This document shows, one piece after another, positions 3,168 through 32,908 of a stretch of 41,316 nucleotides of DNA. The DNA is from a virus (Duplodnaviria; Caudoviricetes): positions 1 to 41,316 of the IMG/VR virus record IMGVR_UViG_3300024986_000171; one strand, written 5' to 3'. Position 1 is the first letter of the stretch; each line of letters opens with the position of its first letter. A model generated the notes under the pieces. The model did no database searches. It was not told the DNA's origin and saw only the letters and a program-made list of their open reading frames with translations. The translations under genes were made by a program, and so were the position numbers.

Positions 3168-3313
3168 GACGGTGCGCCATCCTCGGCGTGGCGCCTCGCG
3201 CGATTCAGCCGGGGGCCATCATCCGGAGTGGGTGCGGTGGCGTGTTGGATGTGGCGCAAGGCGAGCAGCGGCATCGCCTCGGACGATCGGCTGTCGTCTA
3301 CTGGTCCCGGCAT
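3164..3313 (-). CDS. Small hypothetical protein (49 aa, MPGPVDDSRS...)
   Basis: GGAG before the ATG; stop overlaps the next ATG (ATGA); fills the gap after the RT. Confidence 0.4.
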   Translation of the reverse strand: MPGPVDDSRSSEAMPLLALRHIQHATAPTPDDGPRLNRARRHAEDGAPS

Positions 3314-4404
3314 GGGTAGCTCCGTGTCAAAGGATGATCGACGCTACGCCCGCGCTGGCGCAGCAGGTTGGCCAGGCGCGCGCGATCAGCATGGCTCGAG
3401 CTCGCCTGGCGCAGCAGACCGAAGTAGCTGTTGCCGACCGCTCGGAGATCAGCTTCAGGTATCGTGGCCACGCGTCGCAGCGCCTGTTCCACGGTGCGAC
3501 GCCGCGTGACGCGGCGCCATGGCAGGATGACCTGGCCAACGAAATCGATACCGCGCTCGATCGGCTGGCAGATCGTCTTGCGCGGATTGAGCTGCAGGTG
3601 CAAGCGCTCCTGCAGGAATGCATCGATTCGGCGCCTCGCCTCCTTGAGCCATTGCGGCGATTCATGCAGCAGCACGAAGTCGTCGACATACCGGATGTAG
3701 TGCCGCGCGCGCAGCTGGTGCTTGACGAACTGATCGAGTGCATCAAGATGCACGTTGGCGAAAAACTGCGAGGAGAGGTTGCCGATCGGCAGGCCGAGCT
3801 CGGGCACTTGATTGCTGAGTCTCTTGTGCTCAGGCACCCGCCGCATCATCGCCGCCGTACTCTGCATCACGGCGCTCGGACGCGGATCGTGCATGAGGAT
3901 CAGCTCGGCGAGCGCGAACCACCAGGGATCGGTGATGCGCTTGCGCAGCTGCTCGAGGAGAATCCGCTTGTCGATCGAGACGAAGAAATTCGCGAGGTCG
4001 CCCTTGAGATACCAGCCGGGACGCCGCCAGTTGTGTGTCTGGCTGCGTACCTTGGCCTCGAGCCGCTCGACAGCGTAGAGCGTGCCGCGGCCCGGAATGC
4101 ACGCGCAGGAATCCGCGATGAACGAGGCCTCGATCGACGGCGCGATACGGTGATAGAGCAGATGGTGAACGATGCGATCGCGAAACTGTGCGGCCCATAC
4201 CTCGCGCGGCTTGGGCCGGGTGACCACAAAGCAGATCGAGGGCCCCGGCTGATAGGTGCCGCTCACCAGCTCTTCATGGAGCTCGACCAGGTGGCGCTCG
4301 CGATGCTCCTCGAAGGCGAGCGCCGAGGCCGTGTTGCGCTTGCCGAGACGGCAGTTCATGTAGGCGCGCACCGCGTGCGCGAGCGTCGGCGCGCCGGCGC
4401 TCAC
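3298..4404 (-). CDS. DGR reverse transcriptase (about 368 aa; start GTG 4404 inferred)
   Basis: KPREVWAAQFRDRIVHH, LKGDLANFF, GLPIGNLSSQFFAN (DGR-type GxxxSQ), YIRYVDD, GIDFVG; adjacent TR and avd. Confidence 0.95.
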   Translation of the reverse strand: MSAGAPTLAHAVRAYMNCRLGKRNTASALAFEEHRERHLVELHEELVSGTYQPGPSICFVVTRPKPREVWAAQFRDRIVHHLLYHRIAPSIEASFIADSCACIPGRGTLYAVERLEAKVRSQTHNWRRPGWYLKGDLANFFVSIDKRILLEQLRKRITDPWWFALAELILMHDPRPSAVMQSTAAMMRRVPEHKRLSNQVPELGLPIGNLSSQFFANVHLDALDQFVKHQLRARHYIRYVDDFVLLHESPQWLKEARRRIDAFLQERLHLQLNPRKTICQPIERGIDFVGQVILPWRRVTRRRTVEQALRRVATIPEADLRAVGNSYFGLLRQASSSHADRARLANLLRQRGRSVDHPLTRSYPCRDQ

Positions 4405-4413
4405 ATCGAATCG

Positions 4414-4523
4414 ATCTGCGGACAGCCCGGGCAGGGAACTTGTTGTCCTTGTGGTAGTTGTTCTGGTTACCGTCGCCGAAGTTCTGCGCCCAGGCGTAGT
4501 CGGCGTTGCCCGCGTACTGCGTA
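4414..4523 (-). repeat. DGR template repeat (TR), 110 bp
   Basis: Minus strand TACGCAGTACGCGGGCAACGCCGACTAC...AACCAGAACAACTACCACAAGGACAACAAGTTCCCTGCCCGGGCTGTCCGCAGAT; 6 AAC triplets; differs from both VRs only at adenines. Confidence 0.96.
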
Positions 4524-4699
4524 GTGTCGCGCTATCCACGTCGCCCCGCCGAAGGCCTGCGCCGATCAGCGGGGAGACTGCGCCGGACCTGGCCAGGCCA
4601 TTGCCTGCGGTGTCCGTGCTGCGCCTGTCGGTGGCCTCGTGAGCCAGCGGCGCGACCAGATCAAAAGTCGCGCAGGCGTGATCGCCGTGACGATCACGC
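4524..4699 (-). ncRNA. Putative structured 5' portion of the DGR template RNA (avd-TR spacer)
   Basis: About 170 nt between avd and TR with hairpins GCGCGAC/GTCGCGC (4650-4673) and GCGTGATCG/CGATCACGC (4676-4699). Confidence 0.5.
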
Positions 4700-5053
4700 A
4701 GCGGGCGACGATGCGGCTGCATATTTGCGCCATCCGTTGGCCTGCTTGCCCACCGAGGTGGTGAGTGCGATCGCGCGAGCGTACTGCGGATCGCTGATCA
4801 GGTGCTTGTCGTGACAGAGTCGTATCAGGAGCTCGGCCACCTGCAGGCGCTCGAGCAGCTCGACCAGATGCACCGTTTTCTCGCGCGCGACATTCGCGCG
4901 CAGGATCAGCACGAGGATCTCGATGCACTCCTCGCGGATCTTCGCGCCGACACTCGCCTTGTAGTCGCGCCGCATGTTCGCGGTGAGGTCGGCGGCGAGC
5001 CCGAGCAGATCGTAAGCGATCTTGTAGATGGGCAGGGTGTTGTGCAGGGCCAC
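4694..5053 (-). CDS. avd: DGR accessory variability determinant (Avd, four-helix bundle)
   Basis: 119 aa basic helical protein LPIYKIAYDL...GAKIREEC...LLIRLCHDKHLIS...VGKQANGWRK, located between the targets and TR. Confidence 0.9.
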   Translation of the reverse strand: MALHNTLPIYKIAYDLLGLAADLTANMRRDYKASVGAKIREECIEILVLILRANVAREKTVHLVELLERLQVAELLIRLCHDKHLISDPQYARAIALTTSVGKQANGWRKYAAASSPAA

Positions 5054-5071
5054 GGCGAAATGACCAAAGGG

Positions 5072-5569
5072 TTAAATGATCAATCTGCGGACAGCCCGGG
5101 CAGGGAACTTGTTGGCCTTGCGGTAGTTGAGCTGGATACCGTCGCCGAAGTTCTGCGCCCAGGCGTAGTCGGCGTAGCCCGCGTACTGCGCGTTGGTCCA
5201 GTACCACTCTCCAGCGAACAGCTCGGACACGTTGACGACGAGGATGCGCGACTCGCGCCTGTCGGGGACCGAATACTGTTCGCCGAGGCTGGGTGCCCAA
5301 TCGACCGCCGCCTGCCAGGGGCCGGGCTTGAACACCTCCTCGTGCACGAGGAGGTGATAGTCGCGCTGGCCCTCGAGGCCGCGCACGAGGCCGGCGTAGA
5401 TGTCGGTCGTGCCCGGCCAGCACTGGCCGAGCGCGGGCGCAATGAGCGGCGCGGATGCCCTCTGCTGGATCTCCTGCTGGAGCCAAGCCTGCAGGAGGTC
5501 GCCGGCGGGCACGTTGAGCGTGCCCCTGCCGAGGCCGAAGACGATGGTGTCGCGGACGGTGGTTTGCAT
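5072..5569 (-). CDS. DGR target protein 1, DUF1566/CLec-like, C-terminal VR
   Basis: W..AVDW...VPDRRE...WYWT..QY...AW.Q.F.DG...ARAVRR; VR1 at the 3' end; no signal peptide. Confidence 0.9.
   Translation of the reverse strand: MQTTVRDTIVFGLGRGTLNVPAGDLLQAWLQQEIQQRASAPLIAPALGQCWPGTTDIYAGLVRGLEGQRDYHLLVHEEVFKPGPWQAAVDWAPSLGEQYSVPDRRESRILVVNVSELFAGEWYWTNAQYAGYADYAWAQNFGDGIQLNYRKANKFPARAVRRLII
5083..5191 (-). repeat. Variable repeat VR1
   Basis: Versus TR: ACG>GCG, AAC>TAC, AAC>ATC, AAC>CTC, CAC>CGC, GAC>GCC; 7 substitutions, all at TR adenines. Confidence 0.96.
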
Positions 5570-5590
5570 GGCGTGTAAATGATCGAATGG

Positions 5591-6193
5591 TCAAATGGCT
5601 GATCTGCGGACAGCCCGGGCAGGGAACTTGCTGCCCTTGTGGCAGTAGGTCTGGTTACCGTCGCCGAAGTACTGCGCCCAGGCGTAGGCGGCGTTGCCCG
5701 CGTACTGCGTACTGGACCAATGCAATTCCTCAGCGAAGGCCTCCGGACCGCCGGTGCGGAATTCCTCGAGCGCGGTCTGCGCCGGGTCCGTGGGCGTGTA
5801 GGCGTAGCCGACAGGGATGCTCGAGGGATTGTCGCCGCGCCAGCACCAGTTCTTCTGCGTGCTCGGCTTGAATGCGCGATAGAGCATCTCGAGCTCGTCG
5901 CGCGACGGCAGATACCAGTCGTCGCGTCCGTCGATGCGCAGCGAGCGGGCCCACTTCGCGATCGCGCTGCCGGCGGCGGCCATCGCCTCCGTGTTCGCGA
6001 AGCCGTCGCAGAAGCTGCGCGCACCCTCGACGGCGCGCAGGGACTTGTTCCACACCGCGGGGACGTGGAGGCCGACAGCGGCGGGTGCGCAGATCAGCGC
6101 GTAGGGGTTGCGGTCGACGAGAATGCGGCCGGTGTAGTGGCCGCCGTCGAACCTCTCGCCGAGCTTCGGCGCGTGGGCCTGGGGTGCGTTCAT
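5591..6193 (-). CDS. DGR target protein 2, DUF1566/CLec-like (200 aa), C-terminal VR
   Basis: AGGAG RBS before ATG 6193; GERFDGGHYTG...DGFANT...DDWYLPSRDEL...HWSSTQY...ARAVRR; no signal peptide. Confidence 0.9.
   Translation of the reverse strand: MNAPQAHAPKLGERFDGGHYTGRILVDRNPYALICAPAAVGLHVPAVWNKSLRAVEGARSFCDGFANTEAMAAAGSAIAKWARSLRIDGRDDWYLPSRDELEMLYRAFKPSTQKNWCWRGDNPSSIPVGYAYTPTDPAQTALEEFRTGGPEAFAEELHWSSTQYAGNAAYAWAQYFGDGNQTYCHKGSKFPARAVRRSAI
5601..5711 (-). repeat. Variable repeat VR2
   Basis: Versus TR: GAC>GCC, AAC>TAC, AAC>ACC, AAC>TAC, TAC>TGC, GAC>GGC, AAC>AGC; 7 substitutions, all at TR adenines. Confidence 0.96.
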
Positions 6194-6390
6194 GCGCTCT
6201 CCTGTGAGCTGGTGGTGGTGAGGTCGATTGCCGTCGAGCCTGCGCGGCGCAGCTCGTCGGCCAGGTCCTGGAATGCGGTGGCGAGATGCGGCTCCGGATA
6301 GAGCAGCTCGTCGGCGGCGTCTTGCGCCGCTTCCTCGAGCCAGTCGATGACGCGATCGCGCACGACCGCGGGGATGACGACGGGGCTCAT
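6190..6390 (-). CDS. Small acidic hypothetical protein (66 aa)
   Basis: MSPVVIPAVVRDRVIDWLEEAAQD; ATGA coupling to parB and to target 2. Confidence 0.6.
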   Translation of the reverse strand: MSPVVIPAVVRDRVIDWLEEAAQDAADELLYPEPHLATAFQDLADELRRAGSTAIDLTTTSSQESA

Positions 6391-8078
6391 TGCGGGCTCG
6401 TGGGAAAGGGCCACGTCGAGTCGGCCTCGGCGGCCGGCTCGGTGCTCTTGGGCGGGACCTTCTTCGGCGAGAATTTCTTGGCCGCCGGTTTCTTCGCTGC
6501 AGGTTTTTTCGCGGCAGGCTTCTTCGGCGCCGCAGCCTTGGTCGCCTTGGCCTTCTTCTTCGCCTTCTCCTCAGCCTTGAGCCCGCGCTTGATCTCGGCG
6601 GCATCGACGCCGAGCCGAGCGGCGAGCTCGAGCATGCGCTTGGGATCGGTCTTCGAATACGTCCAGACCATCAGCTCGCTCGCGAGCGCCATGTCGTACA
6701 TCAGGAGAGCGAGCTGCGCCGCGTCGAGCTCGTCGATCGGGCTCCCGTCGGCAGCGATCGTCGACCATGACCAGATATCGCGGACGCGGCTGCGCTGGTC
6801 ATGGCCGAGGTGCTCGTAGAACGCGCGCGCGATCATGCGACGGTCCTCGAGCGACGGCTCGCTCGGCACGCGCAGGCGCAGCGCACCGAAGAGCGCCTTC
6901 CGGTAGGCTTTCTCGGCCGCCACGCGCTGGCGCTCCTGGCGCTCCGCATCGCTCATCGTCGCCGGCGCTGTGATGCCCTTGTCGGCGAGGACCTGAGAGT
7001 AGGCCTTCTCCGCGACCGCCTCGACGACTCGATTCGTGTGCGGGTTCACGAGCAGCACGCGCTCGACGTCGGCTTTGCCGACCAGCGTGCGGCGCTTCTT
7101 GCCGCCGAGACCGGAGCGATGCTCGGTCTGATCTAGGTCGACGTAGCCTTTCGGCTCGCTATGACGATATGCGAAGATCTTCTTCGCGGCATCCCCATCG
7201 ATGACCTTCTGGCCCTTGGCCTGCGCCTCTTCGATCACGCGATCCTTGTGCGCTGCGGCCTTGCGCTCGAAGCATTTCGGATCCGTGCACGTGTCCGGGC
7301 CCTTGATGTCATCGAAGAGCTCGCCGGCGTTGCCGGTGCGCTTGGGGCATGTCGTGCACGGTCCGACGCCGGGCAACAGATCCGCGTCGCTGGGCTTGAA
7401 GGGCGCGGTGGCCAGGCGCAACATGTACGTGCGCTGGATATGCTCGCTCGCCTGCGCCGTCGACATCGGCTCGCCGCTGAAGGACCGGACGATCTCCTGC
7501 GTGGCCTTGGCCTGCAGGTCGGCGCCCGGGATGCGCGCGACGAGCAGCGCAGTGCTCGGCGTGAGCTTGCCGCCGAAGAATGCCTTGCGCGCGGTCTCGC
7601 ATAGCGACGTGAGCCGCAGGCGCGCGTAGACGTAGCCCTCGCTCTTGTCGACCTTCGCTGCGATGTCGGCCACGCTGTAGCCGTGGCGCTCGTGCAGCGC
7701 TTCATAGCCTTCGGCTTCCTCGAGCGGATGCAGGTCGGCGCGCTGCAGGTTCTCGATCATCTGGATCTCGAGGACCTCGGTGTCGGTGAGCGCGCGCACC
7801 AGCGCCGGGATCTCGACCAGCTGCGCGGCATCGGCCGCACGCAGGCGGCGCTCGCCGGCGACGAGCTCGTAGAGGTAGTGCTCGCGCTCGAACGCCTCGC
7901 GCGTGTCGGGCAGTGGTCGAACGAGGATCGGCTGGATGATGCCGTGGCGGCGTACGCTTTCGACGAGCTCGGCCTGCGCGGTCTCGTCGAAGTGCTTGCG
8001 GGGATTGTCCAGCGGCCGAGCGATTCGCGCGACGCGAATGGTCTGCACGCCGGGCTGCATCAGTTCAGGAGCGTTCAT
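6387..8078 (-). CDS. parB: ParB/RepB/Spo0J-family protein with Cys cluster and histone H1-like PAAKK tail
   Basis: NPRKHFD...GIIQPILVR...AGERRLRA...ENLQRADL; HTH; CTTC...C...C; KKPAAKKPAAKKPAAKK. Confidence 0.88.
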   Translation of the reverse strand: MNAPELMQPGVQTIRVARIARPLDNPRKHFDETAQAELVESVRRHGIIQPILVRPLPDTREAFEREHYLYELVAGERRLRAADAAQLVEIPALVRALTDTEVLEIQMIENLQRADLHPLEEAEGYEALHERHGYSVADIAAKVDKSEGYVYARLRLTSLCETARKAFFGGKLTPSTALLVARIPGADLQAKATQEIVRSFSGEPMSTAQASEHIQRTYMLRLATAPFKPSDADLLPGVGPCTTCPKRTGNAGELFDDIKGPDTCTDPKCFERKAAAHKDRVIEEAQAKGQKVIDGDAAKKIFAYRHSEPKGYVDLDQTEHRSGLGGKKRRTLVGKADVERVLLVNPHTNRVVEAVAEKAYSQVLADKGITAPATMSDAERQERQRVAAEKAYRKALFGALRLRVPSEPSLEDRRMIARAFYEHLGHDQRSRVRDIWSWSTIAADGSPIDELDAAQLALLMYDMALASELMVWTYSKTDPKRMLELAARLGVDAAEIKRGLKAEEKAKKKAKATKAAAPKKPAAKKPAAKKPAAKKFSPKKVPPKSTEPAAEADSTWPFPTSPQ

Positions 8079-9898: not shown

Positions 9899-9941
9899 AT
9901 TACAGCATTACTGAACGATGGTTGTCAACAGCAATGCTGAA
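9899..9941 (-). promoter_or_regulatory. pL early promoter with two repressor operators
   Basis: Minus strand TTGACA (9928-9923), 18 nt, TGTAAT (9904-9899); operators CAGCATTACTG (9903-9913) and CAGCAATGCTG (9929-9939). Confidence 0.75.
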
Positions 9942-9987: not shown

Positions 9988-10032
9988 TGTATGCACAAAA
10001 AACTTGACATCTCTCTTTTGTGTGCATACAAT
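9988..10032 (+). promoter_or_regulatory. brnTA sigma70 promoter with inverted-repeat operator
   Basis: TTGACA (10004-10009), 17 nt, TACAAT (10027-10032); perfect inverted repeat TGTATGCACA (9988-9997) / TGTGCATACA (10021-10030). Confidence 0.85.
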
Positions 10033-10038
10033 TTGTTC

Positions 10039-10317
10039 ATGGAAATCGAATTCGACCCTACGAAGAACGAGCGCAACATCCGCGAGCGCGGCCTGTCGTT
10101 CGAGCGGGCAGAGGACTTCGAGTTCGAGTCAGCGATCTACGTGGCGGACGATCGCAAGGACTACGGAGAGAACAGGATTCGAGCGTTCGGGCTCCTCGAC
10201 AACCGGCTTCATGCGCTCGTGTTCGTGGAGACCGAAAAGGGCATCCGCGTGATTAGTTTTCGCAAGGCGAACGCAAGAGAGATAGAGCGATATGAGCAAG
10301 CAACCAAGGGCCGATAG
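10039..10317 (+). CDS. brnT: BrnT-family ribonuclease toxin
   Basis: MEIEFDPTKNERNIRERGLSF...DYGENR...IRVISFRKAN.RE...Y. Confidence 0.93.
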   Translation: MEIEFDPTKNERNIRERGLSFERAEDFEFESAIYVADDRKDYGENRIRAFGLLDNRLHALVFVETEKGIRVISFRKANAREIERYEQATKGR

Positions 10318-10561
10318 GGCCGACCGCGACAACCCGGAATGGACCGCGCGCGACTTCGAGCGCGCCACGCCCTTTGTAGGGCTGCCCGGGGCGCTGCGGA
10401 AGAAACTTGGTCGGCGCGGGCCTCAGAAGGCGCCGACCAAGGAACGCATCACGATCCGGCTGTCACGAGAGGTCGTGGAGAGCTTCCGGGCGACAGGGGA
10501 AGGTTGGCAAACGCGCGTCGATGCAGCGCTCAAGGAATGGCTACACGAGCATCGGGGCTGA
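10292..10561 (+). CDS. brnA: BrnA-family antitoxin
   Basis: DNPEWT..DF...RGPQKAPTKERITIRLSREVVESFRATGEGWQTRVDAAL; overlaps brnT. Confidence 0.93.
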   Translation: MSKQPRADRADRDNPEWTARDFERATPFVGLPGALRKKLGRRGPQKAPTKERITIRLSREVVESFRATGEGWQTRVDAALKEWLHEHRG

Positions 10562-10571
10562 GGGGTGCATG

Positions 10572-11555
10572 CTATTGATTGCTGCGCGGTCTGATCGGCA
10601 CCGCGAGGCACTGTCGCAGCGCGTTTGGATTGGAGGCATACCAGTTCGAACAGTCGGTCACTTGGCGCTTGCAGGCGGCTGCGATGTCTCCTCGCTCACT
10701 ATCGCAGCGCTCAAGCGCTGCCTCGGCTGGCGTAATTGGGGTGTCCCAGCCTCGCCGATAGAAGATCCGGCCGCTGCCGGAGTCGAATGCAATTACCTCA
10801 TCGACCCGTAACGTCATGGAAGCCTCAGTCACCTCGTCAGCGAAGGGGTGCGAAATCGAAGGCGAGCTGGATCGTTCTACGATGCTCACATAAGGCTGCA
10901 CCAGGGTGCCGAGTAGAGCCCAGGACGCCGTGCGTGTGTTCCTCTCGGCGTCCTCGCCGGACATTGTGACCGGCACGAAGCACTGGGTATCCTGCGATGG
11001 CGACTCGAAGGCGATCAAGAGAGAGGAGATCCGCCGACGCGTAATCGTCTTGGTCACGCCAAATGCATTGTGGCCGGTGTAGATGCCCAGCTTGTCCTCT
11101 TTGCGGTAATGCTCATAGGGCCGGGTGCTGACGCAGACCTGGAAGACTTCGGTATCTGGATCATAGCTATAACCTGGCCACCCAGAAAACGTGCCCGATT
11201 TGAATAGGGGACCGGAAACGGCGATGCGGTCGGTTAGGCGAACCCGGCCGTAGGCATAGGCCTCGATCGTCCTGCGCTGGCGAGCTTCATATGCCTCGGT
11301 CGTTTCAAATTCGCCGCGAGGTTTTACGCTCGCTGCATGCAAAGCCAAGCGCAGCATGTCGTGGCCGCGCCAATGCGGAGGGACACTTTCGATTGCAGAT
11401 GGAAGCGAGTCGATTTGGTAGAGGGGCCGCCTCTTCTCTTCGCTGCGCGCCTCGGAACTGACCGTGAGCATCGCGGTAGCAACGATGATGGCCAGCCAGA
11501 GCCCGGTGATCCAAGACTCGAGGCACGTCCACCACTTAAGAGACGGGTTACTCAT
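10572..11555 (-). CDS. Exported or membrane-anchored protein of unknown function (moron downstream of cI)
   Basis: N-terminal hydrophobic segment; KPRGEFETTEAYEAR motif; Cys-rich C-terminus; GGAG RBS. Confidence 0.7.
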   Translation of the reverse strand: MSNPSLKWWTCLESWITGLWLAIIVATAMLTVSSEARSEEKRRPLYQIDSLPSAIESVPPHWRGHDMLRLALHAASVKPRGEFETTEAYEARQRRTIEAYAYGRVRLTDRIAVSGPLFKSGTFSGWPGYSYDPDTEVFQVCVSTRPYEHYRKEDKLGIYTGHNAFGVTKTITRRRISSLLIAFESPSQDTQCFVPVTMSGEDAERNTRTASWALLGTLVQPYVSIVERSSSPSISHPFADEVTEASMTLRVDEVIAFDSGSGRIFYRRGWDTPITPAEAALERCDSERGDIAAACKRQVTDCSNWYASNPNALRQCLAVPIRPRSNQ

Positions 11556-11700: not shown

Positions 11701-12156
11701 CTAGGCGACGCTCCGGCTGCTTTTTGTCTTGCTCCGATGCGCCTCCTTCTCTCGATTTTCCTCCTCGCACGTAAGTAGGACGCCATAGGCTGCGGCTTCG
11801 ACGAGACGCCTTTGCGGCCGAGACAGCCGGTCGAATCGCGCGCGAGCGAACTTCCGGAATGGCCACTCATCTGTTGCCAAGCGGACGACTGGCGGTCGGT
11901 GATCGGGCGCTCCTTCCAGCCACTCCGGGGTCGGAGGGATCGGTGCGTCCGGACGAACCCACCACTCGAGCCTAGTCTGTGTGAGCCTGGCGAGGACGGG
12001 CAGATGCCGTTTATCCACGCGACCACGGGTTTTCCATTCCGTGATGGCAGAAAGCGATTTCACCTTCGTCTCTTCCTGCAATCGGGCTGGAGTGACGCCT
12101 TTCTTTTCGATGGCCCAACGGACCTTCTTCGCGAGCGCTTCAGAAGTAGAAAGCAT
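11701..12156 (-). CDS. cI: CI-like repressor (HTH; no S24 autopeptidase domain recognised)
   Basis: HTH-like GVTPARLQEETKVKSLSAITEWKTRG; divergent from cro with operators between; start ATG 12156 inferred. Confidence 0.75.
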   Translation of the reverse strand: MLSTSEALAKKVRWAIEKKGVTPARLQEETKVKSLSAITEWKTRGRVDKRHLPVLARLTQTRLEWWVRPDAPIPPTPEWLEGAPDHRPPVVRLATDEWPFRKFARARFDRLSRPQRRLVEAAAYGVLLTCEEENREKEAHRSKTKSSRSVA

Positions 12157-12228
12157 TGCTGAATTTTCCAAGCCCAATAGGCATATCAGCAATGCTTCTT
12201 GCGCTTGAATTCAGTAATGCTGTATTGT
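12149..12228. promoter_or_regulatory. oR-like control region with three operators and pR
   Basis: AAGCATTGCTG (12151-12161), CAGCAATGCTT (12187-12197), CAGTAATGCTG (12212-12222); possible -35 TTGCGC and -10 TATTGT (12223-12228). Confidence 0.8.
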
Positions 12229-12235
12229 TGGCGGG

Positions 12236-12505
12236 ATGAACCTCGGAATTGAACGAGCAATCGAGTTCTACGGGAGCATGGCCGCGCTCGCGCGATCCCT
12301 CTCGATCACCGCCCCGGCAGTCCATGAGTGGCGAAGCGGAGCGCGCCCGGTGCCGGTCGAGCGATGTGTGCAGATCGAGCGGATGACAAAGGGTGCGGCG
12401 ACCCGCGTCGACCTGCGCCCATCCGACTGGCACCGCATATGGCCCGAGTTGATCGGCGCGCCCGGGGCCCCGGCCATCCCGACCGAGGAAAAGGCGCATG
12501 GGTGA
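12236..12505 (+). CDS. cro: Cro-like / YdaS-family HTH regulator
   Basis: GSMAALARSLSITAPAVHEW...VPVERCVQIE..T.G...DLRP.DW..IWPEL. Confidence 0.88.
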   Translation: MNLGIERAIEFYGSMAALARSLSITAPAVHEWRSGARPVPVERCVQIERMTKGAATRVDLRPSDWHRIWPELIGAPGAPAIPTEEKAHG

Positions 12506-16940: not shown

Positions 16941-17206
16941 CTCCACACCTTCCATACCTCGCGGCGGAGGTATGGAGGCCGGAAAGCGAGGCTGGGCGTG
17001 GGGTTCCATACCTTCCATACCTTCCACACCTGCCCCGCGGGCGCACGCGTACATACGCACGCACGTACGTGCACACGCGATCGCGCGCGTACGCGCGCGC
17101 AGCATCCATCCATCCTATGGAAGGTATGGAAGGTATGGAAGAGCAAGCACCGGCGCGGGTTTCGGGGCTCCATACCTCAGCCAGGGGTATGGAACAGGTA
17201 TGGAGG
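16941..17206. repeat. Putative replication origin: symmetric iteron array around an alternating purine-pyrimidine tract
   Basis: About 12 copies of (TT)CCAYACC / GGTATGG(AA) in mirrored orientation; RY tract 17041-17101; directly after the primase gene. Confidence 0.75.
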
Positions 17207-25553: not shown

Positions 25554-28448
25554 ATGCCGACGATCACCACGACCGAGCTGGGCGCGTCCGGCCGCTACGT
25601 TGATTTCGGTGATCCGGCGTCGCTGCGGGATCTCACGAACCAGACGATTCTCGCGTATTGCAGGCCGACCGGCGCCGAGGGCAACCTCGGCTATCTCCTG
25701 AGCAAGCAGGTCGGCTCGATATCCTGGAAGCCCCGGCTCATCTGCGCCACATCGCCGCCGCGATGGGTGTTAGGAGCATCAAGTGGAGGCGGTCTTAACC
25801 CGGACGCCGAAGCGAGCGCAGATTCGGTCGTTCTCAACGGATGGGTGCATATCGCTGCGACATGGGACGGCAGCCTGCTCGCAAGCGGCATGCATTTTTT
25901 CATTGGACAAGCCGGCGCGGAGATCACCGAACACACCGGCCGCTATGCCACGTATGACGGGTCTGGATCGGTCGAGTCCAATGCGGGCGGGATTTGTACG
26001 CTGCTGAACCGCCACAGCCGCGGTCGCGCATTCGTCGGCGATGTGGCCTACATCGCGTACTGGAATCGCATCCTCTCGCTTGAGGAGCTTGTGACCGCGC
26101 AGGCGAACGGCCCGCTCTCTGTGCCCACCGGCCTCGTGCTGTGCTGGGCCAATCAGCAGGACTACGGCCCGAACAGCCTCACGCCCACGGGTCGCAGCAC
26201 GTTCGTGGGCGGCGCGCTGCCGCCGAATACGGCGCTGGGCGGTGGCGCCGCGGCGGCGCTGGCCGGCGACGCGGTGGTATCGGTGCAGGCCACCGGCGCG
26301 CTGCCGACGACGCATGCACTCGCAGGCGACGCGACCGTGGCCGTGCAAGCGGCGGCCGCCTTCGCTGAACAGACGACGGTGATCATCACCGACCTGGATG
26401 CCGGCAACGCCAACCCGGCCACGTCCACGGTCACCGACGCGGGCACGGCCACGCCGATCATCGAGGTGCAGCGGCGCACCGGCGCCGACGGCGATGGCGG
26501 TTGGCGGCACTTCCTCTTCGCGGTCGAGGGCGTCGAGGGCAAGCTGCCGGTGTTCCGCTGGGCCAAGGCCGGACACCGATTCGGCGGGAGCTTTACGAGC
26601 GCATGGGCGCCCGTGTACACCACCGACTGGATCACGTGGACGAAAGCACCGGCGCGCACGATCGGCGCAACCTGGATCGAGTGGAGCTTCTCGGGCCCGT
26701 TGCCGGCCGGCCGCGTCTATGTCGCCTCGCATCCGCTCGGGCAGCAGGCGCATGCAGCGACGTTCGCAGCGGATCTGCTGTCCACCTACCCGACGGTGGC
26801 CGCGCCAACTCCGTCGGCCGACACATCCGGCATCTACAACACGACGCCCGCCGAGACGGATGACCTCAGCCGCGCGGTGGGCGCCAACGCGCAGTACGCG
26901 CTGCAGCTCGCATGGGGCGGCCCGACCACCGATGGCAAGCCCAAGCGCAAGCTCGTCGTGCTCGCCGGCATGCACGCCGCTGGCGAGGCGCACTCGTGGA
27001 TCGGGTTCACGTCGGCGGTGCAGTGGATGCTGTCGGACTCCTCTGCCGAAGCCGCGGCGTTCCGCGCGAACTGGGATGTGTGGCTCTATTTCAACGTCAC
27101 GCCGAACGGCCTGCGCGGCGGCAATGCGCGCTGGAATTTCCGCTCGAGCCAAGACCCGAATCGAGACTGGAAACTGAGCGGCTCGAGCACGCTGGCCGAG
27201 ATCACCGCACTGCGATCTGCGATCGAGGCTGACACCGGCGGCGCCGTGAACGTGCTGTATTCGTTCCATGGCGCGGCCGACAAACCGTCACGGTTCAACG
27301 TCTATTTGACCGACACCGACAGCAACGTCGATACGCGCCGCCCGATTATGCAGTCGTTTCTCACATCAGGCGCTTCGATCTTCGGCGTGTCAGCCCATAT
27401 TGAGGGTCGCGTCAACAACACTGAGACGTGGTGGTCGGACGCGAAGCTCGGCACTGTGCTCTCGTTTCCCGTCGAATTTCAAGCGCTCGGCGAGTCGAGC
27501 CAGGCGGAGGCCGAGTTCGTTGGCCGCGCCTGGATGCAAACCCTGCAGGCGGTGGACGCCGCCGGATGGTTCGCCGGCGCCGCGCTCGCAGCCGCCCCCG
27601 TGGTCACCGTGCAGGCCGGTGGTGCGCTCACGACCGCGACTCAACTCGTCTCCGCTGCGATCATCGCGACGACGGCCACCGGCACACTGAGCACCGGTGT
27701 GCAACTCGCTGGTGCCGCAGCCTCGGCCGCGCTCGCCGCGGGCGCGCTCACGGTGCAGCTCCGCCTGCGCGCCGACGCACTGGCCGCGGCGATCGCTGCG
27801 GCCGGCCTCACGACCGCGCTGCGGCTCGCCGCATCCGCGCAGGCCGGGGCGCAGGCCTCCGGCGCTCTCACTACGGCCGGAGATGGTGCCGCACTCGCCG
27901 GCAATGCCGCGGCGGCAGCGCTCGCCACCGGATCGATCACGATCCAGATCCGCGTGGCCGGCGCCGCACTTGCCTCGGCGATCGCCCAGGGCGTGCTCGC
28001 CGGCAGCGCGGCGACGCTGCAGGCCGATGCGATCGCCGCCGCGCTGGCCACGAGCGACGTGGCAACGGCGGTGCGGCTCGCGGCTTCGGCGCTCGCCTCG
28101 AGCGCGTCCACGGGCGCCCTCACCGCGCCGGGCGCCGGCGGCGCCCTGCAGGCCGACGCGCAGGCGATCGTCATCGCCGAGGGTGGGCTCACCACCAGCA
28201 TCCGGGTTGCCGGCGCCGCGGCGGTGGTTTCGCAGGCCACCGGCACGCTGGATGTAGGGCTGACGCTGCGCGCCGGCGCCTTCGTTGCGGCTGCATCCGA
28301 CGGAATGCTGCTCGCGCAGATCCAACTTAATGCGGCAGCACTGGCCAGGGCGCTCGCCTCCGGCTATCTCGTCGGATCCATCCCGCCTACGGTGCCCGCC
28401 AGCCGTACGATTCCGGTAGCAGCCGAGTCTCGAATGGTGCCGGCATGA
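25554..28448 (+). CDS. LamG/ConA-like lectin + M14-like zinc carboxypeptidase + 20-aa Ala-rich repeat protein (964 aa)
   Basis: NGWVHIAATWDG...GDVAYIAYWNRILS (LamG); GMHAAGE, NVTPNG..GGNAR, QDPNRDW, SFHG, PVEF (M14-like); about 13 C-terminal repeats of about 20 aa. Confidence 0.75.
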   Translation: MPTITTTELGASGRYVDFGDPASLRDLTNQTILAYCRPTGAEGNLGYLLSKQVGSISWKPRLICATSPPRWVLGASSGGGLNPDAEASADSVVLNGWVHIAATWDGSLLASGMHFFIGQAGAEITEHTGRYATYDGSGSVESNAGGICTLLNRHSRGRAFVGDVAYIAYWNRILSLEELVTAQANGPLSVPTGLVLCWANQQDYGPNSLTPTGRSTFVGGALPPNTALGGGAAAALAGDAVVSVQATGALPTTHALAGDATVAVQAAAAFAEQTTVIITDLDAGNANPATSTVTDAGTATPIIEVQRRTGADGDGGWRHFLFAVEGVEGKLPVFRWAKAGHRFGGSFTSAWAPVYTTDWITWTKAPARTIGATWIEWSFSGPLPAGRVYVASHPLGQQAHAATFAADLLSTYPTVAAPTPSADTSGIYNTTPAETDDLSRAVGANAQYALQLAWGGPTTDGKPKRKLVVLAGMHAAGEAHSWIGFTSAVQWMLSDSSAEAAAFRANWDVWLYFNVTPNGLRGGNARWNFRSSQDPNRDWKLSGSSTLAEITALRSAIEADTGGAVNVLYSFHGAADKPSRFNVYLTDTDSNVDTRRPIMQSFLTSGASIFGVSAHIEGRVNNTETWWSDAKLGTVLSFPVEFQALGESSQAEAEFVGRAWMQTLQAVDAAGWFAGAALAAAPVVTVQAGGALTTATQLVSAAIIATTATGTLSTGVQLAGAAASAALAAGALTVQLRLRADALAAAIAAAGLTTALRLAASAQAGAQASGALTTAGDGAALAGNAAAAALATGSITIQIRVAGAALASAIAQGVLAGSAATLQADAIAAALATSDVATAVRLAASALASSASTGALTAPGAGGALQADAQAIVIAEGGLTTSIRVAGAAAVVSQATGTLDVGLTLRAGAFVAAASDGMLLAQIQLNAAALARALASGYLVGSIPPTVPASRTIPVAAESRMVPA

Positions 28449-31936: not shown

Positions 31937-32908
31937 ATGGCCTTCGAGCGCAAATTCCGAAATGTCGTGTTGCTCGCGAAGATCGAGACGGCAAAGGGTA
32001 CTGATGCTGTGCCGACGGGGGCAGCCAATGCCATCCTGCCGGTCGGCGAGGTAACGTTCACGCCGGTGGACGCCGAGCGTGTGCCGCGCAACGTGATGCG
32101 CGGCTACTTCGGCGCGCCCGATGCGCTGCTGGGCTCGGTATGGGCGCAAGTACGCTTCGCGGTCGAGCTGCAGGGTTCGGGCGTAGCAGGCACGGCCCCC
32201 GCCTGGGGGGCTCTCCTGCAGGCCTGCTCCTATGCCGAGACCGTCACTGCCGGCTCGCGGGTGGAGTACACGCCGGTCTCCACGAGCCCGAAGAGCGTCT
32301 CGCTCTACTTCTACGCCGACGGCGTGCTGTACAAAATGCTGGGGGCCGTAGGCACGTTCACCGGCGCGACGCTGGTCGACGCCATCCCGGCGCTCAACTT
32401 CACCTTCCTCGCTCCCGCCGTGGCGCCGACCGCGGTTGCCAACGCGACGCCGACCCTCACCGCCTGGAAGGTGCCGGCGCTCGTGAACGAGGTCAATACC
32501 GCGCAGCTCGTGCTGGGCGGCGCTTACGCCACCGGCGCCATCACTGGTGGCACCTCCTATGTAACGGGAGGGCTGGAGTTCGATGTCGGCAACCAGCTCT
32601 CCCGCATGAAGCTCATCGGCGCCAAGGACAGCACGATCACCGATCGCAACGTCACCGGAACCATCAAGACGATGGACCTCACCGCGGCGCAGGAGGTGGC
32701 GCTCTATACCCTCATCACAGGCGGCCAAGCGCAATCGATCGGTATCACGCACGGGCAGGTGGCAGGCGCCAAGATCCTGCTCTTCTTTCCCAGCGGGCGG
32801 CTCCTCGGGCTCACACCCGTGAATCTCGAGGGGGTATGGACGAGCGACGTCCCATTCGAGGCGCCGCCCCTGGCCGGCAATGACGACCTGCGCATCGTAG
32901 CGCTCTGA
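31937..32908 (+). CDS. Major tail tube protein
   Basis: LLAKIET..GTDAVPTGAANAI...VELQGSG.AGTAPAWGALLQAC; GAGGAGG RBS. Confidence 0.85.
   Translation: MAFERKFRNVVLLAKIETAKGTDAVPTGAANAILPVGEVTFTPVDAERVPRNVMRGYFGAPDALLGSVWAQVRFAVELQGSGVAGTAPAWGALLQACSYAETVTAGSRVEYTPVSTSPKSVSLYFYADGVLYKMLGAVGTFTGATLVDAIPALNFTFLAPAVAPTAVANATPTLTAWKVPALVNEVNTAQLVLGGAYATGAITGGTSYVTGGLEFDVGNQLSRMKLIGAKDSTITDRNVTGTIKTMDLTAAQEVALYTLITGGQAQSIGITHGQVAGAKILLFFPSGRLLGLTPVNLEGVWTSDVPFEAPPLAGNDDLRIVAL

Follow-up and report, generated by a model that had tools for sequence, protein, structure and literature searches.

Lectin-fold targets of a diversity-generating retroelement in the early operon of a temperate phage and their possible role inside the host cell

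Diversity-generating retroelements (DGRs) of phages are usually read as host-range switches that act on virion adhesins. The virus record IMGVR_UViG_3300024986_000171 (Duplodnaviria; Caudoviricetes), analysed here over its whole length of 41,316 nucleotides and referred to below as the window, carries a DGR with two short target proteins, the genes of which belong to the early run of a temperate phage, and the question raised by this locus is what purpose hypermutation serves at such a place. An earlier reading of the same DNA, here called the original prediction, proposed that the targets are hypervariable intracellular binders made just after induction or infection. The comparative analysis presented here leads us to lean, by a modest degree, towards an explanation of this kind, in which the targets would be anchorless tail tips that act early in the cytoplasm as binders of variable host proteins (e.g. 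defence components). If this is true, targeted hypermutation extends to the contest inside the infected cell.

The cassette is an intact DGR. On the minus strand, its elements follow in the order target200, target165, avd, RT-15 RNA, template repeat (TR) and reverse transcriptase (RT) gene (Table 1), and the predicted two-target layout with a spacer between avd and the TR was confirmed by gene, Pfam and alignment evidence. The TR aligns without gaps to the variable regions (VRs) at both target gene ends (offsets +669 and +1188) and differs from each VR at seven positions, every one of which is a TR adenine; the probability that 14 mismatches all land by chance on 29 adenines in 109 nt is approximately 3e-9. 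The mismatches were thus described correctly in the original prediction, while the TR end proposed there was not, as inclusion of the edge base 4523 adds one non-adenine mismatch for target165. The count of 27 adenines before the A-free tract was also correct, all of them occupying codon positions 1 or 2, with two more found in the last codons. Both VRs end in a G/C-rich, A-free stretch behind which they diverge from the TR, a feature of the initiation of mutagenic homing (IMH) signal. The RT carries an intact YxDD and the [I/V/L]GxxxSQ motif, which is given as a DGR RT motif in the available text of PMC7826257, and is 63–66 % identical to RTs in 11 cultured-phage records, the next best match reaching at most 37 %. 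No further TR copies were detected in the 41-kb contig and no remote VR was found among its tail genes, the right end of the contig lacking endolysin and lysis genes.

Table 1. Features of the DGR cassette and of the early and immunity regions in the window
Feature	Position	Strand	Evidence or remark
Integrase	1-1083	plus	Phage_integrase, 76.6 bits
xis-like helix-turn-helix (HTH) gene, last of the leftward run	968-1207	minus	HTH_17, E 0.002 (weak)
DGR RT, 368 aa	3298-4404	minus	RVT_1, 60.9 bits; IGNLSSQ at 207, YVDD at 239
TR, 109 nt	4414-4522	minus	29 adenines
RT-15 structured RNA (Rfam), 5' of TR, overlapping the avd end	4520-4710	minus	181.4 bits (gathering 82)
Avd accessory protein, 119 aa	4694-5053	minus	Pfam bAvd, 49.7 bits (cut-off 40)
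Three period-8 units (~YRRYCMTT) behind the target165 VR	5059-5082	minus	
target165 (B type)	5072-5569	minus	VR 5083-5191
Three period-8 units behind the target200 VR	5578-5601	minus	
target200 (A type)	5591-6193	minus	VR 5602-5710
ParB-like protein, same gene run, upstream of the targets	6387-8078	minus	Pfam ParB_N and HTH_ParB
Putative pL	9899-9939	minus	TTGACA 9928-9923, 18-nt spacer, TGTAAT 9904-9899; read from sequence
Two operator-like palindromes over putative pL	9903-9913, 9929-9939		
Putative repressor	11701-12192	minus	No Pfam or PHROG match
Lysis-lysogeny switch region	11701-12505		Operator-like sites at 12151, 12187, 12212
cro	12236-12505	plus	P22_Cro and YdaS matches

The DGR is active, and diversification is ongoing among close relatives, as judged indirectly from protein variants rather than from rates or reads. 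Among the six other members of the 90 % clusters of both targets, P0121, P0124, P0126 and P0127 differ from the window proteins by 9, 11, 10 and 8 residues, respectively, and all of these differences lie inside the 36 VR codons and can be reached from the TR by adenine-only changes, which bears out the A-specific variation expected in the original prediction. The remaining two members comprise a protein with a single residue change outside the VR and a shorter identical copy. Across 243 TR–VR pairs of relatives, 3213 adenine mismatches were counted versus 65 at other bases, under a scoring that penalised non-A mismatches. The 4^27 sequences per target that had been proposed nevertheless overstate the usable diversity, because CAG codons nearly never change in relatives (2 of 654 cases).

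Some further observations concern the mutation spectrum and the strains sampled. TR adenines that precede G are almost never changed in the VRs of relatives (frequencies of 0.00 in CAG, 0.03 in AAG and 0.05 in GAG, compared with 0.2–0.7 elsewhere), which may reflect either an RT context bias or selection. At two loci (L192 and L206), the TR–VR pairs show 10–12 non-adenine mismatches, likely due to a replaced TR or a stalled element. DNA near-identical to the contig is present in wastewater and bioreactor sequencing runs, and contigs from 4 of 24 runs reveal a second strain beside that of the window, with an RT allele (3388–4386) that has approximately 17 amino-acid differences and with nearly identical Avd and target backbones. 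Contig breaks at the TR and VRs were not counted as a sign of activity, since repeat collapse can cause them.

The position of the cassette between the immunity region and the integrase is a trait of the clade to which it belongs. The window represents a temperate phage with integrase, Cro, terminase, capsid, tape measure and tail-tip (TipJ-bearing) genes, and its targets are encoded in a tightly packed leftward run (from 9870 to 1207) with 4-nt overlaps at 11 of the 18 junctions. The original placement of the targets between parB and xis is upheld by Pfam for the former gene and by a xis-like HTH gene at the end of the run, although the latter call is weak. Similarly, the proposed operator-bearing pL corresponds to a promoter-like site with two palindromes lying over it, which are found another three times in the stretch from the putative repressor to cro (8 matches of the operator pattern versus 1.39 expected, the pattern being derived from the same sites), but the promoter-like site was absent from the promoter-scan list of the window. 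The stated distance of more than 25 kb from the tail genes is valid for the linear prophage map, on which the tail tube gene lies at 31937; after circularisation, the tail end is only a few kb plus the missing lysis genes away, and there it lies in a convergent operon.

The predicted early-operon placement was found to hold across more than 100 relatives, which were gathered in two sets. The target-seeded set comprised 155 loci obtained by alignment of the A type, of which 116, with the window, carry an RT (duplicates kept), while the RT-seeded set comprised 72 non-duplicate loci of 78 new ones, partly from the same contigs, and was scored with HMMs (hidden Markov models) from the first set. 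An upstream mark was either a same-strand CI gene or an opposite-strand gene for Cro, CII or primase (pL orientation), and a downstream mark was int or xis. In the target-seeded set, 76 of the 89 loci with 6 kb available upstream bear switch or replication marks and 63 of the 74 with 4 kb available downstream have int or xis; the corresponding counts in the RT-seeded set are 40/50 and 32/39. The same placement as in the window is observed in the annotated phages LPPA56, Cruim01, Magia (a myophage), QDWS and Haboob. A PHROG scan was made of the 125 neighbour families that occur most often and, from the rarer neighbours, of 126 that are encoded on the same strand and have at least 200 aa. No tail gene was the best match for any of the 125 families, and in the rarer group such matches are restricted to L147 and L154 (RTs 47 % identical); the other virion-type matches are an ejection protein in L158 and a partial terminase in L007.

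The number and kind of targets vary within the clade. Among 58 RT-seeded loci, the arrangements AB (24), BB (12), BA (5), AA (3) and others are found. Targets without RT and Avd occur at 18 loci with 3 kb available downstream (including L002, L010, L028, L045, L046, L049, L050 and L072), which often retain the repeat array described below; one of the 18 is Medea1, in which two targets are kept in the absence of the RT. Such loci may hold frozen alleles or targets served in trans. Extra targets that track the same TR are also present within this early run at a distance of several kb upstream, for example in L113 (376–876 and 2440–2937) and L160 (4507–4887), with further cases in L020, L078, L092 and others; Magia has one right behind the immunity region.

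Both targets are predicted to carry the VR at the C-terminus of a domain of C-type lectin (CLec) fold, in line with what the original prediction had anticipated. Target200 matches Pfam Lcl_C/DUF1566 with 48.2 bits (cut-off 34.9), while target165 remains under the cut-off (23.3 bits), and a profile match of A to B type indicates that they share one core. The AF2 model of target200 (pLDDT 95.6) is a stand-alone Lcl_C/DUF1566 CLec domain with two insertions and aligns with the C-terminal domain of Legionella Lcl (8q4e; Z 12.6, rmsd 3.1, 123 aligned), which is also the top Foldseek match of target165 (E 4.5e-5); the predicted models match TvpA and Mtd as well. In the target165 model (AF2 pLDDT 95.1, pTM 0.77), a hairpin and helix (residues 8–37), which could serve oligomerisation, are tethered to a minimal CLec domain (57–164). 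In an Atlas search with residues 1–45 of this protein, all matches fell under the bar. The claim that the targets lack signal peptides agrees with a heuristic scan in which neither the 156 A nor the 160 B proteins showed a lipobox or Tat motif; 13 and 3 of them, respectively, have a hydrophobic stretch at the N-terminus. A hydropathy heuristic gave 1.18 and 1.12 for the two targets versus 2.57–2.71 for four exported-looking proteins of the window.

Comparison with longer proteins suggests that the targets likely derive from tail-fibre tips and have shed the part that anchors these to the virion. Among 25 longer A-type relatives, many have 420–1540 aa with the domain at or near the C-terminus, and in P0148–P0158 it forms the C-terminus of proteins of ~500–1500 aa (33–43 % identity over 76–96 % of the query). 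Four of these (P0150, P0151, P0152 and P0155) have tail-fibre N-termini, and several long relatives also contain Ig-like domains. Because the long relatives bear the domain C-terminally behind tail-fibre N-termini, the A type is best described as a tail-fibre tip minus its anchor. No longer B-type relatives were identified among 7996 candidates, which is weak evidence. In a FastTree phylogeny of 112 RTs, the deep nodes of which are poorly supported, 101 RTs form one clade (support 0.954) that is sister to L154, from a tail module, and L158 (0.977). A move from the tail module to the early operon would be the simplest reading, its direction depending on a distant root. Two loci with ParB upstream and integrase downstream (L138 and L139) have RTs that group with that of the tail-context locus L147, which may indicate a second relocation or an RT swap.

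Two cis elements accompany the cassette. The RNA 5' of the TR is a full-length match to Rfam RT-15 (RF03018), placed here between avd and the TR of a DGR clade. All 12 clade loci tested contain it; the match is weaker in L138 and L147, it is absent from L154, L157 and L158, and in a BPP-1-species phage a Phage_DGR RNA takes its place. The main text of Weinberg 2017 (PMC5737381) neither names RT-15 nor gives it a role, and assigns only RT-10 to a DGR. The second element is an array of period-8 units, and the only two arrays of at least three units in the window directly follow its two VRs. In the set from which the pattern was derived, at least three units are present at 136 and at least two at 170 of 211 VR ends, compared with none behind any of 91 TRs and roughly 2 in the 211 shuffled ends; the pattern-free identity at lag 8 is 0.50 at VR ends versus 0.28 when shuffled and 0.23 at the TR. 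Among targets outside the derivation, 106 of 140 have at least two units and 65 of 140 at least three, with 0/140 in one shuffle each. A search of both strands of 75 loci (1.06 Mb) gave 74 arrays, of which 71 lie at target ends and the remaining three follow VR-like ends; the opposite strand has none. Together these counts suggest that the array is likely part of the IMH signal and serves as a target tag. Alternatively, it may aid translation of the next gene, as the arrays of the window lie where the ribosome-binding sites of target165 and avd would be expected. Such a tag also extends beyond the clade, because similar spacing occurs in L158 and, by eye, behind targets of BalMu-1 (L164) and Lagaffe (L168). 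Neither VR of the window is followed by a GC hairpin, while a GC-rich hairpin stands behind 70 of 225 VR ends in relatives; a hairpin was rejected as the nature of the post-VR element, since stems of at least 5 bp (55 of 224, versus 23 shuffled) share no common stem or loop.

The layout, regarded as unusual in the original prediction, proved to be of an already catalogued type. Table S1 of Wu 2018 (PMC5758913) contains 20 matching rows, 18 of them proteobacterial, of two- or three-target cassettes with DUF1566 only (TG-TG(-TG)-AVD-TR-RT; architecture B1, CLec2, category d1) from Burkholderia, Thauera, Pseudomonas, Polaromonas, Collimonas and others. By description rather than by sequence, these resemble the window in gene order and short DUF1566-only targets, and they share with this DGR type extra targets 3–10 kb away and ~24–34 TR adenines; the rows state neither phage-operon position nor function, and most lack a phage structural homologue. 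In the available text of Roux 2021 (PMC8144416), clade 3 includes the proteobacterial, partly prophage-encoded target cluster PC_00009, labelled 'non-structural/unknown', a broad mixed cluster that also contains the Legionella DGR and is likened to the window by description rather than sequence; that text gives no operon analysis. The closest described case is the Burkholderia phage Magia (NC_070954; Gafford-Gaby 2021, PMC7883833), with an RT 64.7 % identical, Avd and lectin-fold targets, likewise short, that are flanked by the immunity region and xis/int. It differs in having three B-type targets and no A type, and its authors, who guessed at adaptation or host range, made no comment on the early placement. 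The main texts of the Haboob and Cruim01 papers do not mention a DGR. BPP-1 (mtd-avd-TR-brt) shares with the window the A-to-N pattern, Avd, GxxxSQ and a C-terminal VR in a CLec fold, but it has a single virion target of ~380 aa and a GC hairpin behind the VR, and the RT of the BPP-1-species phage is only 35 % identical. Moreover, the adhesin of a BPP-1-type element lies in the tail module, in contrast to the window targets, which belong to the early run and have no anchor domain. The cassette type is thus known, while its biology appears undescribed: early-operon placement, tail-tip ancestry and the period-8 array are unstated in the literature found by a full-text search from which subscription journals are largely missing. 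The homology of target200 to tail-fibre tips, the RT-15 identity of the upstream RNA and the period-8 array at the VRs are added here.

By analogy to BPP-1, for which adenine-specific copying is established, a transcript carrying the RT-15 RNA and the TR would be copied by RT–Avd with errors at adenines, and the cDNA would replace either VR, the period-8 array behind it likely marking the recipient. Under repressor control, target expression would be coupled to lytic growth together with diversification, so that on induction or infection pL would drive synthesis of cytoplasmic targets able to bind variable host proteins. Extended to the whole proteobacterial phage clade, the idea becomes a tentative and less probable one, namely that tail-fibre tips were converted into a cytoplasmic hypermutating binder library that is expressed on induction and evolves inhibitors of the defence or regulatory proteins met in each new host, an 'adaptive counter-immunity' in which a single template reaches two to four targets by means of a hairpin-free period-8 tag. 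Cultured carriers exist among the 11 records mentioned above, and the idea can therefore be tested now. The period-8 tag and RT-15 also offer handles on how cDNA chooses a VR over the TR and how one template serves several genes.

Several observations weigh against an intracellular role. Upstream marks are missing in 13 of 89 and 10 of 50 loci, a further 3 of 89 have the opposite orientation, and L139 combines an early-type context with an RT of the tail-context group. The best structural matches of the targets are surface adhesins, their nearest long relatives are virion tips, and they have no attached effector domain. Fusions of the A-type domain to MazG-like (P0054) and DHH (P0143) enzymes, which would speak for such a role, may represent stop-codon loss (read-through) between neighbouring genes, and PADLOC gave no match for the targets or their neighbours (15 proteins). 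AAC codons yield Tyr, Asp, Gly and Ser, a spectrum not counted as selection because it resembles the intrinsic bias of the BPP-1 RT (available text of PMC12875486); the AAC skew and the near-invariant CAG were dropped as proof of selection, since RT context bias can produce both. In RNA runs (X16–X20), part of the window is represented, and by contigs alone, one of them 39.9 kb long, which may be DNA; they were not accepted as expression evidence, as contigs cannot show transcription. The DGR, the fold and the placement stand from the original prediction, while the intracellular role (counter-defence or host takeover) is one that we infer from gene position, for a domain that is a tail-fibre tip elsewhere.

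Tail-tip ancestry also invites the explanation that the targets are carried by virions, either as loosely attached accessory receptor-binding tips or as internal proteins that are packaged and injected. In BPP-1, Mtd sits at the tips of the fibres as a protein of its own (PMC3240598), the Magia authors (PMC7883833) suggested a host-range change, and Roux 2021 (PMC8144416), in its available text, allows uncharacterised structural proteins for PC_00009. This is nonetheless unlikely given the absence of an anchor domain, the lack of tail-gene linkage in the PHROG neighbour scan of the clade, the occurrence of the same cassette in a myophage as well as in the present phage with TipJ, and the scattering of extra targets among early recombination genes. 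Virion presence alone would leave an intracellular role tenable, because a protein made early may be enclosed in the virion and later injected; the internal proteins of T4 are of this kind. Loss of the anchor makes the targets soluble and no export signal was found, which, together with their ancestry, would also suit proteins of ancestral surface chemistry that mask receptors or their precursors from inside, or decoys freed at lysis. Exclusion genes, however, must as a rule be expressed in the lysogen, and masking is weakened because operators cover the one promoter-like site that was found upstream; release at lysis needs no early timing, and we regard this explanation as slightly less likely than carriage by virions. 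An obligate two-chain binder of A and B, similar to paired antibody variable domains, would account for the 103 distinct adjacent A–B pairs of the target-seeded set and for at least two targets in 57 of 58 RT-seeded loci, but is improbable in view of the BB, AA and BA arrangements, the B-only phages Magia and QDWS, and the A type that stands alone in 14 of the 18 RT-less loci. Finally, patchy presence and the loci that keep targets without RT and Avd, including Medea1, could point to a mobile passenger tolerated in the early region, with nearly neutral targets. That is very improbable, as there are 0 stop codons in 224 VRs, scaffold residues are invariant across 104 A proteins, targets are kept after RT loss, and extra remote targets track the same TR. 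The preferred explanation remains that of early cytoplasmic binders.

Other parts of the contig deserve a brief description. One member of the RT cluster of the contig bears a Burkholderiales label. A BrnT–BrnA toxin–antitoxin pair (10039–10561, plus strand) with its own consensus promoter (10004–10032) sits between the repressor and pL, and directly behind the putative repressor lies a gene (10572–11555, minus strand) for a 327-aa protein with a hydrophobic N-terminus and no Pfam or PADLOC matches, a candidate exclusion gene expressed in lysogeny. Between the portal and capsid genes, a 964-aa protein (25554–28448, plus strand) with an N-terminal laminin-G domain, an Ala-rich repetitive tail and no PHROG match is possibly a capsid or neck fibre. 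Directly after the primase/VapE gene, an 8-nt repeat forms inverted arrays (16942–17165) with an origin-like appearance.

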